23,281 nt of DNA from Candidatus Poseidoniaceae archaeon (lineage in GTDB: Archaea; Thermoplasmatota; Poseidoniia; Poseidoniales; Poseidoniaceae), in the NCBI GenBank assembly GCA_965662895.1, contig CBFIJH010000019.1, positions 1-23,281 on the forward strand, written 5' to 3'. Below are positions 85 to 3,780 of the stretch, piece after piece. The translations under genes and the position numbers were made by a program. The notes below the pieces were generated by a model. The model was given only the letters and a program-made list of their open reading frames with translations, ran no database searches and was not told the origin of the DNA. Each line of letters begins with the position of its first letter. The first letter of the stretch is position 1.

Positions 85-142
85 GACTCACTGCAAACCC
101 TTTGATTTGCTATTTCCTGAGCAATGGGTATTCGGACATACC
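85..142 (-). repeat. Intergenic palindromic element, copy A
   Basis: 47/58 identity, ungapped, with 610-667. Minus-strand core TACCCATTGC-N14-ATCAAAGGGTTT-GCAGTG. Confidence 0.85.
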
Positions 143-207
143 ATCCCAAATTGACAACTGTGTTTATTCGATTCTCAAACTAATGTTCTGAATACTCGGT
201 TTCTCAA

Positions 208-483
208 TCACTCAGAAACTGGAAAGTAGAATGGACCATAATCCCAAGTCATTATTCCATGATAGAACAAAGATGAGAAAGCACTCACTAAGATGAAAAT
301 AATGCCTAAAACAAAAAGTAACCAATTTTCTTCCTTGTATTCAGAGATCGCCCTTTCTAAGGAGGAGAAAATTGCTGCAATACAAAATAGAAGCCCAATC
401 ACTGAATTGAAATCGGTCATGACTGCTGTGAAAACTGCAAAACAAAGAAGAAGAATTGTAAAGCCGAAATGTTGAATCGCCAT
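208..483 (-). CDS. Small integral membrane protein (about 3 TM helices), unknown function
   Basis: 91-aa ORF with three hydrophobic stretches; TATA-like TAATTATATA about 25-30 nt upstream of the ATG. Confidence 0.65.
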   Translation of the reverse strand: MAIQHFGFTILLLCFAVFTAVMTDFNSVIGLLFCIAAIFSSLERAISEYKEENWLLFVLGIIFILVSAFSSLFYHGIMTWDYGPFYFPVSE

Positions 484-609
484 TGCAACATTCTTACTTT
501 AGGCCTGTATATAATTAGCGCCTACAGAGAAGCGTCATCCAACACAAAACGTCTACACACGAGGAAATTGGTTGTATTGGTATACTGCTACGAGGGTAGG
601 GATGTACAT

Positions 610-667
610 GACCCACTGCAAGCCCATAGATTGGTTCATACCTGAGCAATGGGTATTCGGATAGACC
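610..667 (-). repeat. Intergenic palindromic element, copy B
   Basis: Shares the exact 21-mer CCTGAGCAATGGGTATTCGGA with copy A. Minus-strand arms ACCCATTGC/GCAGTGGGT pair over 9 bp with one G-T. Confidence 0.85.
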
Positions 668-694
668 CTTTGATTCAATCCTGAAACGATTAGA

Positions 695-1171
695 CTAGGG
701 CCCGCCCCATTCTGATAAGCCTCCAAGACTCCCTCCCCCATAGCCTCCAATGTCTCCAAGAACTAGATAGACAACAATCCAATACATCATTCCTACAACA
801 ATGAAAAATACAATTGTGTAGCCGTTTTTTCCTTTATTTCCAACCAGCATAAAAGGTAATGCTATTATTAGAAGTATAGGAGAGGCGCAGCAGAAAAACA
901 TACTTTCTGCATTGGGTGCAATTATTATTGATAAGAAGGACAGAACTATCAGTATAAAACTAAAGGTATTGGCATCACTCGAGGGTTTTTCGTTGGGGAA
1001 GTCGATAGTTTTCGTTGCCTCGCCATTCTCAATCTTTTCCCATTTCGATCCATCTTCATTCAATTGTAATCCTTGTTCTCGCATTATGAAAAGTATCCTT
1101 TCTCTTTCATCAGAATCAACATCAATTGACTCTTTGCTCGAACTAACTCTCATTGTCTGGTTATCATCCAA
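695..1171 (-). CDS. Membrane protein: soluble acidic N-terminus, 3 TM helices, Gly-rich tail
   Basis: 158-aa ORF with three C-terminal hydrophobic segments ending GGYGGGSLGGLSEWGGP. The ORF track start codon is TTG. Confidence 0.65.
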   Translation of the reverse strand: MDDNQTMRVSSSKESIDVDSDERERILFIMREQGLQLNEDGSKWEKIENGEATKTIDFPNEKPSSDANTFSFILIVLSFLSIIIAPNAESMFFCCASPILLIIALPFMLVGNKGKNGYTIVFFIVVGMMYWIVVYLVLGDIGGYGGGSLGGLSEWGGP

Positions 1172-1239
1172 TGACTTACATTACATTATCGCCTCCAAAA
1201 TTAGAACTTAAAGAAGTAATAAGAGGCACAGAAAAGATA

Positions 1240-1308
1240 CACTGCGATTCCTTTGATAGGGCGTTTTTGCAAAGGGCCCCCTTTGATAACCCCTCTTGGC
1301 AGTGGGTA
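1240..1308 (-). repeat. Intergenic palindromic element, copy C (longer spacer with inner hairpin)
   Basis: Minus strand TACCCACTGC-N41-ATCAAAGGAATC-GCAGTG; inner hairpin CAAAGGG-CC-CCCTTTG at 1270-1285. Begins 8 nt after the stop of the TauD-like gene. Confidence 0.65.
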
Positions 1309-1316
1309 GTCTCTGT

Positions 1317-1985
1317 TCAGCCCCTGTGTTCTACATATTTCTCAATTTTTTCCGCCCCTATCCAATATCGTTTGAGTAAGCGATTTGAATTGTCTTCCAA
1401 GGCTGTTCGGCCATGAAGCATACGCCTGTTATCAATAACTAAACATTCTCCAGGTTTGAGTTTGAGTTGTATTGTTTTAGCAAACCTCACCGCTTCGTTA
1501 AAGGTATCAAAAGCCTCTTGTTGCTTGATAGATAAATCCTCATTCACTAACCAGAAGGCAGTTGGTTCAAACAAAACAGAATAATATATCCTGTCACCCA
1601 AAGGAGTTTCATAAATTAAAGGATGATAACCAACATCGTCTTTGAAAACCAAGTGCTCCTTCAGATGAATAGTTCGAAGAATCTCTTGAACATCTGAAGG
1701 CATTAAACTAAAAACGCGTAACCCATCAATCATTGTCGAATGCCCACCACGTTGATCTTGGACTAAGCAGTGCCACAAAATGTAGTGGGACAAATGGTGA
1801 TCCGTGTGAGGGGGTAGCCTTTCAGAAGATGTTACCAAAGCAGGAGTATGCTGTTGTACCAATACATCGTTTTCCAAGATGATAAAGCCAAGTTGAGTTA
1901 TCACATCCTCGATATCTGAATCATGATTGGAAAACCGACTCCATCCTTGGGAAGCCAAATCCGCCAATATTCCATCAATCGCCAT
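1317..1985 (-). CDS. TauD/TfdA-like (clavaminate synthase-like) Fe(II)/2-oxoglutarate dioxygenase
   Basis: HxD motif (LPPHTD), GGxSxxxDG, and C-terminal LKPGECLVIDNRRMLHGR...R carrying the third iron ligand and the 2OG-binding Arg. Confidence 0.85.
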   Translation of the reverse strand: MAIDGILADLASQGWSRFSNHDSDIEDVITQLGFIILENDVLVQQHTPALVTSSERLPPHTDHHLSHYILWHCLVQDQRGGHSTMIDGLRVFSLMPSDVQEILRTIHLKEHLVFKDDVGYHPLIYETPLGDRIYYSVLFEPTAFWLVNEDLSIKQQEAFDTFNEAVRFAKTIQLKLKPGECLVIDNRRMLHGRTALEDNSNRLLKRYWIGAEKIEKYVEHRG

Positions 1986-2026
1986 TGCTTCGCAACAATT
2001 ATATTCTCATTTATTTATGTCGCTAC
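1986..2026. promoter_or_regulatory. Probable bidirectional archaeal promoter, leaderless
   Basis: Only 41 bp between divergent ATGs (1985 and 2027). AT boxes AATTATATT and ATTTATTTAT lie about 25 nt from each start. Confidence 0.5.
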
Positions 2027-2467
2027 ATGGCACAAGTAGTAACTGTTGACCTTCGAGATAGAGCCAAGCGTTCAGAAAACTTCCCTGAAAATTGGACTGA
2101 TGGAATGTTGGATGAAGCAATCCAACGATATGAAAAATTCCTTCTTCTAGCTGCAAAACATCCTGATGAGCCTATTGCACCGACTAGAGATATTGATGAG
2201 ATTTGGCACCTCCATATGCTCAGCCCCGTCGCATATCATAGGGACTGTATCACACTGATGGGTAAAATTCTCGATCACGACGGCGGATTTGGCGCAGTTC
2301 CAGAGGAAATGCCTAAACTTGAAGAGACATTCATGAATACTGCAAAATTGTGGGAAAACGAGTACGGTAATTCATATGTTGGAAATCCTGAAACTCAATT
2401 AGATGATAATATGAAGAAATGTTGGCACAATTGTGTAAGTAGATGTCACAATGCTTGCAAATCTTGA
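2027..2467 (+). CDS. DUF1399/glycine-rich-domain (GRDP)-like protein with C-terminal CxxxCxxxCxxxC tail
   Basis: Motif AIxRYxKFLxL...PTxDIDEIWHLHMLSPxxYxxDC...GxILDH is typical of DUF1399-like proteins. Ends CWHNCVSRCHNACKS. ATG 2027 preferred over TTG 1985. Confidence 0.75.
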   Translation: MAQVVTVDLRDRAKRSENFPENWTDGMLDEAIQRYEKFLLLAAKHPDEPIAPTRDIDEIWHLHMLSPVAYHRDCITLMGKILDHDGGFGAVPEEMPKLEETFMNTAKLWENEYGNSYVGNPETQLDDNMKKCWHNCVSRCHNACKS

Positions 2468-2477
2468 TTATTGAAGC

Positions 2478-2539
2478 CATTACGTATCCTTTGAAATAGG
2501 TGAAAGTCCCACTGGTTAAGTAGTACGAATCAGGGGGTA
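2478..2539 (-). repeat. Intergenic element, degenerate copy D at the island/core boundary
   Basis: Minus strand TACCCCCTGA-N34-TTCAAAGGATAC-GTAATG, with the same block order and orientation as copies A-C; just downstream of the purP stop. Confidence 0.4.
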
Positions 2540-2567: not shown

Positions 2568-3725
2568 TCAGGTTAGAACTTCGAGTAAGCGATCTTGTTC
2601 AGCAGCCATTCGAAGTTCCATGGCAATTCGTCGTCCACTGGACATTGGCTTGCGCCAGAGAGCGTTTCCGTAGGGATGGCCGACGTTTAGGTGGACGTTT
2701 GTACCTCCGCCGAGTCGGGGAGCGACATCATAAATCCAGTAATTCATGTCTTTGTCGATGCAGGTTTGAAGACAAAATGGTCCGATGATTCCTGGGTCGT
2801 AATGTTCCTTGCTTGCTTTGATGAATTTCTCACCAAGTTCGAAGGCCTTCTCAAGCAAGGATTCACGAATCGTTGCTGTGTTGTGGCCAACCACTGTCAT
2901 CTCAGGAATCTTTTGATGAGCAGGCATCGTCATTTGCTGTGGTGCTGGAAGTCGGACATGTCCATCCAAAGAGGACTCAAATCGCCAATCTACACCTAGA
3001 AGTTCCAATCTCTCTCCTTCATCCGCAAGTGGGCTGTAGAAGAAGTTCAGGTTGAAGACGGGTCCAATGACATAGCGCTCAATTCGTGCTCCATCGAGAG
3101 ATGCTTGATCGATGATACCATCCTTGAGAAGGACTTCTGATTTTTCTTTGTATTCTGCATACGATGCGCACGTGAAGAAACCGCGTTCGAGTTTCTTTTG
3201 TGCATGGTGAAGTTTGACGATGACGAGGCAATCGATATCTTCTGGATTGTCGATCGCCTCTGGATAAGGAAGTCCTGCTTTATCGAGAATCCAATAGTAA
3301 TCTTGTTCCTCGGTTCGTTCTTCCATTCGTAACATGTTTCGAGATCCGAAGAGTGGGATCTTGAATTTATTTTCTACATCTTCAATCGATGAATAGGATG
3401 TAAAGGATCTGTTTGGAATGTAGACTACGTTTCGTTTCCTCATCTCCAACTGCATTGATTCATTCATGACATCGTTGAACGATGGCATCACAATTGCTTT
3501 GTCGACCATTCCTCGAAGGACGCGTCCGGAACTTGAGCGCTTGGTCTTGAAGTAATCTGCGTACGTCTTGTGCCGTCCTTCTTGACAATAAGCAACGGTT
3601 GGAAATCCTTCCTCGATCCCACCATCGCATATATCCAAAGCTGAGTGCGATGCAGTCATTCCAATTCGGAGTTTCATCCGATCGTATTCCTCAATGATTT
3701 CTGCAATATCATCCCGTTGAAGCAT
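2568..3725 (-). CDS. purP: PurP-family formate--phosphoribosylaminoimidazolecarboxamide ligase (ATP-grasp)
   Basis: ASHSALDICDG..EEGFPT, IPNRSF, LERGFF, GPFCLQ, DVAPRLGGGTN, MSSGRRIAMEL. Start set at the ATG of MLQRDDI. Confidence 0.9.
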   Translation of the reverse strand: MLQRDDIAEIIEEYDRMKLRIGMTASHSALDICDGGIEEGFPTVAYCQEGRHKTYADYFKTKRSSSGRVLRGMVDKAIVMPSFNDVMNESMQLEMRKRNVVYIPNRSFTSYSSIEDVENKFKIPLFGSRNMLRMEERTEEQDYYWILDKAGLPYPEAIDNPEDIDCLVIVKLHHAQKKLERGFFTCASYAEYKEKSEVLLKDGIIDQASLDGARIERYVIGPVFNLNFFYSPLADEGERLELLGVDWRFESSLDGHVRLPAPQQMTMPAHQKIPEMTVVGHNTATIRESLLEKAFELGEKFIKASKEHYDPGIIGPFCLQTCIDKDMNYWIYDVAPRLGGGTNVHLNVGHPYGNALWRKPMSSGRRIAMELRMAAEQDRLLEVLT

Positions 3726-3780
3726 GACTCTCAGCCTCTTCCTGTTAATCACGGTCTTTGATACAATCGATGCAATGGTT

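Follow-up and report, generated by a model that had tools for sequence, protein, structure and literature searches.

What are the short palindromic repeats that stand between unrelated genes beside purP in a marine archaeon, and by what means do these genes come to lie there? The question arises from a stretch of 23,281 nucleotides (nt) of a Candidatus Poseidoniaceae archaeon (assembly GCA_965662895.1, contig CBFIJH010000019.1), which is the window of the present analysis and equals contig C19 in full. Its source genome, of 1.86 Mb in 26 contigs, is labelled G000; the other G numbers denote comparison genomes and the L numbers loci. A sequence-only reading of the window had described four co-oriented copies (A to D) of a palindromic three-block site at its left end, and had proposed an integron-like system of gene capture. 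The repeats are probably site-specific recombination sites of a family of 262-amino acid (aa) serine recombinases of the Marine Group II archaea (Poseidoniales). The observations behind this answer are a repeat family, a clustering of breakpoints within it, a reassortment of its arms, a register between repeat and recombinase gene, and cassettes found in differing contexts.

The repeat unit and its breakpoint

The three-block pattern is present exactly, at the positions first given for it, in A (89-130), B (614-655) and C (1240-1308). Its left block, TACCCAYTGC, has 9 matches where 2.3 are expected, and none of 100 shuffles yields 9 or more; its right block has 7 matches where 1.3 are expected, a number likewise reached by none of 100 shuffles. 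The full pattern occurs four times in the 1.86 Mb of G000, three times in the window and once at C11:73393-73434, while a reversed control pattern is absent. The C11 copy, a fifth good one, and further copies at the ends of contigs C8, C5 and C24 had escaped the earlier description. Copy D (2478-2539) does not hold as a fourth copy, as its left block has three mismatches and the covariance model R1, built from 20 copies of the unit, gives no match to it even at E≤10. By BLAST, D recurs in three of the 36 other genomes of the genus (G022, G025 and G031); judged by alignment, it is a divergent partial relative of the repeat and no good fourth copy.

When the copies are aligned with their flanks, the conserved unit proves to be ∼86 nt long, and the 42 nt that had been taken for the site are only its middle. 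Within this length, one short motif (CARWGGGT, or ACCCWYTG as its complement) is present five times. In the window, complete 86-nt units are found on the minus strand at 65-150 (A, with its core at 89-130; R1 79.5 bits, E 2.6e-21) and at 590-675 (B; 91.9 bits, E 4.5e-25). Contrary to the earlier description, the sites are not all co-oriented: a partial, divergent copy on the plus strand at 6-80 (30.6 bits, E 1.7e-6) abuts A head to head and overlaps it by 16 nt, and D is no co-oriented copy. The minus-strand copy C (1240-1308), although an exact match to the block pattern, is a partial or hybrid site that lacks both outer modules and in which the short motif is internally duplicated. It goes undetected by R1 in the scan of G000 and is conserved in two relatives, G020 and G030, where the DNA beyond 1308 differs. 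Under R1, C and D are thus no better than background, an outcome that the sequence-only reading had set against itself, but other evidence explains both as partial or hybrid sites: each opens with a TA, has a right-arm-like motif after it and is missing the accessory half, which is why they are read in this way.

At E≤1, R1 finds 12 matches in G000, nearly all at contig ends and in mixed orientation. Outside the window, four lie in the last 5 kb of C8 and two in the first 2 kb of C5; of the rest, one is cut by the start of C24, one is near the end of C11 and a weak one is on C4. The strict block pattern recurs in 16 of the 36 other genomes of the genus and in none of 24 genomes of other genera. 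With R1, matches at E≤0.001 are found in 35 of 37 genomes of the genus (1-10 in each, very many at less than 1 kb from a contig start), and at E≤0.01 each of five near-complete genomes of two sister genera has 3-7 dispersed matches. The neighbourhoods of the units vary in nearly every species. One side is typically occupied by a housekeeping gene (purP, the SDH operon, secY, the GMP synthase gene or an AstE-like gene), the other by small open reading frames (ORFs) without Pfam family or by giant surface proteins, followed by the contig end. No integrase or transposase is found among 111 unit-flanking ORFs. In G002 (C51:7954-8051, locus L032), two tandem unit cores stand 15 nt apart directly after secY, at the end of a ribosomal protein cluster.

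A further line of evidence concerns the position at which related sequences cease to be related. All unit-bearing loci were compared pairwise (megablast, at least 93% identity over at least 250 bp), and ends of homology were kept where both contigs continue for at least 80 nt. Of 306 such ends, 134 are no more than 60 nt away from a unit, and their distribution peaks at model positions 80-81. Ends with the shared DNA on the 5′ side of the model pile up at positions 79-82 (8, 24, 18 and 9 cases), and those with the shared DNA on the 3′ side at positions 77-78 (8 and 5 cases). Altogether, 94 of the 306 fall at most 8 nt from model positions 78-79, which are the TA, against 1.3 expected by base share. 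The trinucleotide C-T-A at positions 77-79 is kept in 109, 108 and 108 of 109 distinct copies, a set that omits copies too near a contig end for a 14-nt flank, and the core at the breakpoints reads CGCTAC. Around C-T-A the arms reassort, since at least five left-arm classes and at least seven right-arm classes occur in many combinations; the commonest class, TCAGA/TCTGA, is symmetric around the TA. The point of exchange falls outside the 42-nt core of the sequence-only reading. It is situated at the end of the unit distal to the recombinase gene, with the motif-rich 67 nt and their five motif copies in between. One right-arm class, made of C-T-A and a conserved stretch of ∼20 nt ending in GGGGGACTGA, is found on five unrelated metagenome contigs (L038, L104, L109, L110 and L114) and could signal a widespread cassette or a favoured target on the chromosome.

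The palindromic character of the unit also raises the question of its fold. The folding energy of single copies is no better than that of shuffles (z about -0.8 to +1.0), and RNAalifold on 20 canonical copies, out of 22 copies with the 42-nt core, finds no compensatory pairs, the stems never varying. The minus strand has hairpin potential, with one U-G to C-G change. An alignment of 41 copies from several subfamilies leans towards the CAYTGC/GCAGTG stem of the sequence-only reading, which is 89% paired with 11 double-change cells, a score that none of 500 shuffles reaches. The nearer CARAGGG partner of the same 5′ half is 80% paired with 22 double-change cells, again reached by none of 500 shuffles. 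With twice the double changes in this nearer pairing, CAYTGC/GCAGTG was dropped as the defining structure; it does show covariation, but as one of two alternative pairings of which neither is decisive. The motif copies change in concert between subfamilies, a pattern compatible with a strand that folds, as attC does, and equally with repeated sites for a protein. Rfam 15 at the gathering threshold gives no match in the whole window.

A serine recombinase in register with the unit

As the sequence-only reading had stated, the window itself holds no recombinase. Inside a sister array of G000, a 262-aa ORF on the minus strand (C8:89112-89900) matches the Pfam Resolvase family (PF00239, 1.4e-30) and, over residues 204-241, part of the Recombinase domain PF07508. 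Residues Y16, R18, S20, D93, R94, R97 and E145-R148 are invariant in 19 homologues, and R18, S20, D93, R94 and R97 are catalytic. By these sequence features (Resolvase catalytic domain, nucleophilic serine, Arg/Asp set), the ORF is assigned to the serine recombinase superfamily. Its nearest solved sequences are the Gin invertase (4m6f, 1.8e-14) and the catalytic domain of TP901-1, and the catalytic domain of gamma-delta is also matched. The best structural alignments of the predicted fold (pLDDT 75) are with Bxb1 and LI-type large serine integrases, whose first half it matches over ∼245-254 columns; in the model, the protein is a catalytic domain joined to a recombinase domain, without zinc ribbon and coiled coil. 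At E≤1e-5, 994 relatives are matched. The 120 of them that were listed, in the length class covered by this search, come from marine samples, mostly from contigs 1-6 kb long, and measure 255-304 aa (most of them 261-265 aa), the sole exception being a 173-aa partial sequence. Within the genus, the recombinase was found in five of 37 genomes; within the order, the count is 21 of 151 genomes, distributed over eight of 22 genera. A scan of genome contigs with a single protein as query gave only two near-identical loci.

Unit and recombinase gene stand in a fixed register. At six of eight recombinase loci of the genus, the start codon is preceded at 90-190 nt by an R1 unit on the opposite strand, a single match among them being weak (E 0.22). 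In 78 metagenomic loci retrieved with a recombinase alignment as query, R1 gives 101 matches at E≤1, and the 89 at E≤0.01 were tallied. Forty of the 78 loci have a proximal upstream unit on the opposite strand; its distance from the gene is 77 nt in 9 loci, 184-190 nt in 30 and 320 nt in one. Relative to the recombinase gene, upstream units are on the opposite strand in 67 cases and on the same strand in three, while downstream units are divided 11 to 8. Locus maps reveal an array of the form unit-gene-unit-gene-unit-recombinase in L140, L141, L107 and L132, recombinase genes bracketed by two co-oriented units in L114/115 and L118/120/121, and two tandem recombinase units in L105.

Some further recombinase-like sequences deserve mention. 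At C12:25-177 of G000 (locus L065), the terminal 51 residues of a related serine recombinase survive as a remnant (55% identity) fused to an unrelated open frame, and G061 and G116 have comparable matches to the C-terminus only. In G025 (C81:4666-7875, locus L061), six small ORFs come after a homologue with 63% identity, and R1 detects no unit in the vicinity; this locus could represent a small virus-like element that has integrated, perhaps one of the 'Charybdis' type reported for Poseidoniales.

Cassettes and the island after purP

Discrete blocks bounded by the breakpoint are found in differing contexts. Window positions 592-1308, comprising unit B, a 158-aa gene and C, recur in G030 as a 90% identical block with unrelated DNA on both sides, and the ends of this block coincide with the TA of B and with the TA closing C. 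Seven high-identity blocks with crossovers at both ends are all recombinase cassettes, of 1.07-1.18 kb or 2.11-2.12 kb. The recombinase cassette of G000 occupies ∼C8:88057-90169, its left border being C-T-A without a full unit. This 2.1-kb cassette, 98% identical, stands beside an AstE-like gene in G000 and in G005 after a gene that, from its translation, we take to be Nudix-like; the G000 copy of the latter gene is on contig C6 and has no unit after it. Similarly, two units of G031 match the second and third units of the C8 array at 91-92% identity, and the cargo between them is unrelated.

Co-oriented units are spaced 268-6740 bp apart and enclose 0-4 ORFs, mostly 1-3. Nineteen of the enclosed ORFs are on the strand of the unit and 18 on the opposite one, so that cassette genes lack a fixed direction. 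No Pfam family is assigned to 18 of 26 cargo proteins; the others are type I restriction-modification proteins (three genes), a C5 methylase, an HNH, a T5orf172 and a TPR protein. In G025 (C90:45-6982, locus L063), a serine recombinase and a complete type I system (HsdR, HsdS and HsdM) lie between two co-oriented units and are followed by a TauD-like ORF related to window positions 1317-1985.

With candidate crossovers at 72/73, 597/598, 1307/1308 and 2538/2539, the island of the window would consist of three recombinase-less cassettes, at ∼73-597, 598-1307 and 1308-2538, stacked after purP. The cargo is as first described. Cassette 1 holds a 91-aa hydrophobic ORF on the minus strand (208-483) and cassette 2 a 158-aa hydrophobic ORF on the minus strand (695-1171) that is common to G030, neither having a Pfam family. 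Cassette 3 carries a TauD-family dioxygenase on the minus strand (1317-1985; PF02668, 1e-22) and a GRDP-like gene, formerly DUF1399, on the plus strand (1985-2467; PF07173, 1.1e-11). The adjoining purP-type core gene, on the minus strand at 2568-3752, has the Pfam domains DUF1297 and DUF1246, and its 3′ flank is the hot spot.

Four TA dinucleotides are the candidate crossover points of the island. At 72-73 two left arms would meet (L-TA-L′), the flank of A past the TA matching, as reverse complement, the left arm of the copy at 6-80, which is of the same class as that of a complete copy in G006. The second, at 597-598, and the third, at 1307-1308, are suggested by the block shared with G030, which starts at 592 and ends at 1308. 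The fourth, at 2538-2539, borders the conserved purP flank and lies within D (2470-2550), a divergent repeat which, by alignment, holds a palindromic junction of two right arms (R′-TA-R).

Comparison of relatives supports this border. Within the genus, 29 of 37 genomes have purP, and the contig often breaks off 0-700 nt past the stop codon of this gene. G000, G022 and G023 have in common the first ∼29 nt after the stop and diverge directly after GGGT; the contig of G023 ends at the very base of divergence, and that of G021 stops where its own flank has the corresponding motif. The sequence-only reading had named fixed gene content between homologous sites as a result that would speak against it; the content differs among genomes. 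In six relatives, the gene next after purP, with 0-2 small ORFs between, belongs to a block whose G000 copy opens contig C12, so that the island of the window is placed between the start of C12 and purP. The earlier candidate arrangement, in which the end of C11 abuts C19, was dropped, since synteny in these six relatives puts the far border of the island at the start of C12. Bordering the island there, C12:689-4042 and its orthologues (L096-L101) encode a 1117-aa surface protein that is 63-86% identical between species, with neighbours at 87-99%; by these identities it is a fast-evolving gene next to a hot spot.

The opposed junctions of the island call for a further explanation. Two left arms stand head to head at 72/73 and two right arms form a palindrome at 2538/2539, and these are the reciprocal products expected of an inversion of 73-2538 between inverted sites. 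If this inversion were undone, A would adjoin the purP flank and point the same way as in G022. The arrangement suggests that the three cassettes were probably flipped as one block.

Natural populations provide a further view of the same positions. The stretch occurs in 18 public runs from eight studies, all available as contigs, and one run from each of four studies was compared; in such material, uncovered parts or missing joints are uninformative and rates cannot be shown. In run X1, contig pieces end at 598, 1309 and 2539. In run X15, pieces end at 610 and 2544, and a contig that matches from 2538 onwards has a canonical left arm before this point. A contig of run X2 that starts at 72 is preceded by eight letters of a canonical right arm, and in run X3 the DNA past 1309 is the reverse complement of a left arm of the recombinase-proximal type. 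The continuations in X15, X2 and X3 fit alternative partners at the same TA positions. The summed depth of contig pieces bearing a unit is 4-7 times that of their flanks. In X1, the 66-nt purP flank (2538-2603) reaches ∼7 times the summed contig depth of the adjoining island (971 against 139), and most cells or relatives in this sample seem to carry something else after purP.

Proposed mechanism, alternatives and relation to known systems

From these elements, a mechanism can be proposed. The site would measure ∼86-90 bp, with a short, roughly dyad-symmetric exchange point around C-T-A at one end, where the enzyme would cut at the TA. The ∼67 bp beside it, with five CARWGGGT copies, may act as accessory binding sites by analogy with transposon res, the short motifs binding the enzyme. 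A cassette would extend from one exchange point to the next and comprise a right arm, 1-3 genes in either direction, the accessory part and a left arm. Where two sites have the same orientation, their recombination would release the cassette as a circle with one complete site, and the reverse reaction would insert this circle at any resident site; where they are inverted, the intervening DNA would be turned round. As some cassettes carry the recombinase gene, the others would have to be moved in trans.

Other origins of the units have to be weighed against this mechanism. They could be attL and attR scars of ordinary integrative elements that carry the recombinase, for example virus-like or plasmid-like ones of small size, the recombinase-less cassettes being decayed remnants that no longer move and have accumulated at hot spots in the manner of SCCmec-type islands. 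Such an origin fits the recombinase gene lying inside units bounded by two sites, the type I restriction-modification system carried by one recombinase unit, the C-terminal recombinase remnant at the far border of the island (C12:25-177), and the Charybdis elements, whose integrated ∼4.6-kb copies in Poseidoniales are reported to carry an unspecified integrase or recombinase (bioRxiv 10.1101/2025.08.03.668216); a link between Charybdis and the unit is possible. It is nevertheless unlikely, as the sites of recombinase-less cassettes are complete and highly conserved and one such cassette, at 592-1308, stands intact amid other surroundings in a second species. In addition, the units occupy many chromosomal places rather than one attB, the recombinase is without the zinc-ribbon and coiled-coil part that sets the attP × attB direction in large serine integrases, and a scan of IMG/VR gave no close relatives of it and only two distant matches. 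A selfish palindromic repeat, similar to miniature inverted-repeat transposable elements (MITEs) or repetitive extragenic palindromic (REP) sequences, would spread by itself or by an unseen transposase, accumulate in flexible regions and break assemblies. The inverted-repeat ends, the several subfamilies, the dispersed low-copy distribution and the summed depth of units at 4-7 times that of their flanks would suit it. This is improbable in view of the breaks, which fall inside the unit at one invariant trinucleotide and not at its two ends, of the reassorting arms and of the fixed register with the recombinase gene; moreover, no Y1 transposase exists in the genome (no PF01797 match in G000), nor any transposase or integrase among the 111 flanking ORFs.

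Two further explanations dispense with a mobile element. Repeats of 86 bp are long and alike enough to serve as short homology for ordinary homologous recombination without a dedicated enzyme, and the recombinase was not found in many genomes that have sites. Breakpoints would then be spread over the 86 nt, whereas they pile up at positions 77-82, and subfamilies that differ through most of the unit share C-T-A and exchange arms there, which makes this explanation quite improbable. Finally, the hairpin potential of the minus strand with its U-G to C-G change, together with some covariation in two alternative stems, could indicate a structured non-coding RNA or a transcription terminator after genes. 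This is very improbable indeed, given the lack of an Rfam match, a folding no better than that of shuffles and the absence of a fixed relation to gene direction; an RNA explains neither the breakpoints nor the recombinase register, and no RNA run contains the stretch.

The interpretation of the units as sites of the serine recombinase has to accommodate several contrary observations. The recombinase was found in only five of 37 genomes of the genus (and 21 of 151 of the order) and the sites in 35; the genomes are incomplete, yet the mismatch is real. Among the metagenomic recombinase loci, 38 of 78 have no proximal unit at E≤0.01, and only eight of these 38 have less than 270 nt of upstream DNA. 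The empty G000 site opposite the insertion in G005 has no recognisable resident site, and for this reason a transposon-like insertion fits better there than a site-by-site exchange. The breakpoint counts take each pair twice and include many near-duplicate contigs, so that their independence is overstated. Recombination was never directly observed, the material being assembled contigs with no joints listed, and in both X2 and X3 one contig bridges 641/646-2564 unbroken. The proposed inversion of the window is weakened by the D-type junction, which is conserved on both sides of the TA in G022, G025 and G031. Lastly, the outer stem and the 3′ hairpin are without significant covariation; as compensatory changes are also absent from the canonical copies, the roles given to the accessory motifs are guesses.

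How does such a system compare with those already described? Integrons combine a tyrosine recombinase (IntI), an attI site and arrays of cassettes with attC sites, and clusters of attC sites without integrase are known as CALINs. The likeness resides in small unrelated cassettes between co-oriented, imperfectly palindromic sites of variable inner sequence, in an exchange point inside the site that makes each site a composite of two neighbouring cassettes, in a recombinase read away from the array with an adjoining site, and in arrays that lack the recombinase, such as that of the window, which parallel CALINs. The integron-like gene capture proposed by the sequence-only reading stands in so far as content differs between sites, breaks occur at one point and a candidate recombinase is in register, but it has to be amended for a site of ∼86 nt, a serine enzyme and a recombinase in a cassette of its own, features that bring the system as close to res/resolvase and SCC-type elements as to an integron. 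As had been noted from the start, the sites are without the RYYYAAC...GTTRRRY core of attC; the core here is C-T-A (CGCTAC at the breakpoints), that of attC G|TTRRRY. The enzyme belongs to the serine type, the one of integrons to the tyrosine type. Since cassette genes lie in either orientation (19 against 18), one common promoter cannot serve them. Two sites enclose the recombinase gene, which moves as well, and many small hot spots replace a single platform. No IntI-type tyrosine recombinase was found beside the arrays; the sole Phage_integrase match of G000, and its only tyrosine recombinase match, is a 365-aa open frame on C20 (14010-14519, locus L043) that adjoins no array. In a Poseidonia metagenome-assembled genome (L103), a serine-recombinase cassette stands beside homologues of the genes adjoining this C20 tyrosine recombinase.

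The other close parallel is the res/resolvase pair of Tn3/gamma-delta, Sin and beta. In Tn3-type transposons, the crossover is at the end of res far from tnpR, and the accessory subsites are in between. The present system resembles them in a serine enzyme, a site in the range of ∼90-115 bp with the inferred crossover at one end, putative accessory subsites between crossover and recombinase gene start, and a predicted deletion between direct repeats; the features that suggest a res-type site are the invariant TA, the symmetric TCAGA/TCTGA arms and five motif copies on the gene side, whose role in accessory binding is putative. The res site of Tn3 is given as 114 bp with three dimer-binding sites (PMC2602789). 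Among the differences, there is no transposase partner, the C-terminal part is a recombinase domain where resolvases have a small helix-turn-helix, the sites bound cassettes and are dispersed on the chromosome, and insertion, which classical resolvases avoid, would be required.

In SCCmec and composite serine-recombinase islands, units with and without recombinase are also stacked between repeated sites, and the enzyme acts in trans. SCCmec-type elements differ in that they insert at one gene end (rlmH, tRNA or ssrA) with a short att and a zinc-ribbon/coiled-coil enzyme, whereas here an 86-bp multi-motif unit is whole in every cassette and stands at unrelated ends (purP, SDH operon, secY, AstE-like). 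Large serine recombinases (phage-type integrases, Ccr and TnpX) have 400-700 aa, against 262 aa here without the zinc-ribbon and coiled-coil part. Mpi of Bacteroides is a multi-site invertase. The resemblance to the Gin/Hin/Mpi group lies in Gin being the nearest solved catalytic relative, in one enzyme that would serve dispersed sites and in head-to-head and palindromic window junctions that fit inversion; the difference is that most arrays are direct repeats (67 against 3 upstream), leading to excision and insertion instead of a two-state switch. The system works like an integron and like res/resolvase and is a member of neither, and it falls outside the definitions of integrons, large serine integrases and MITEs. 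A search of the literature at the level of listings, on recombinases, islands, cassettes and res-type sites of Poseidoniales or Marine Group II, returned no description of it.

What would this mean for the archaea concerned? Marine Group II archaea are uncultured and very abundant in the surface ocean, and their gene exchange is little known. There is about an even chance that Poseidoniales, which rank with the most abundant archaea of surface seawater, run a native cassette exchange, a serine-recombinase counterpart of the integron. In it, a mid-size enzyme with catalytic and recombinase domains only would act on res-like 86-bp sites to excise, insert and invert 1-3-gene cassettes, among them that of the recombinase itself, at several hot spots, which would account for much of the strain-level variation in gene content and for the fragmentation of assemblies. 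If true, it would provide a testable mechanism for small hypervariable islets of membrane, surface and defence genes, the recombinase being small (262 aa) and the site short with a defined crossover, and would explain why assemblies break at the same places. It would also represent a second, independently evolved enzyme chemistry for the integron idea of cassette capture.

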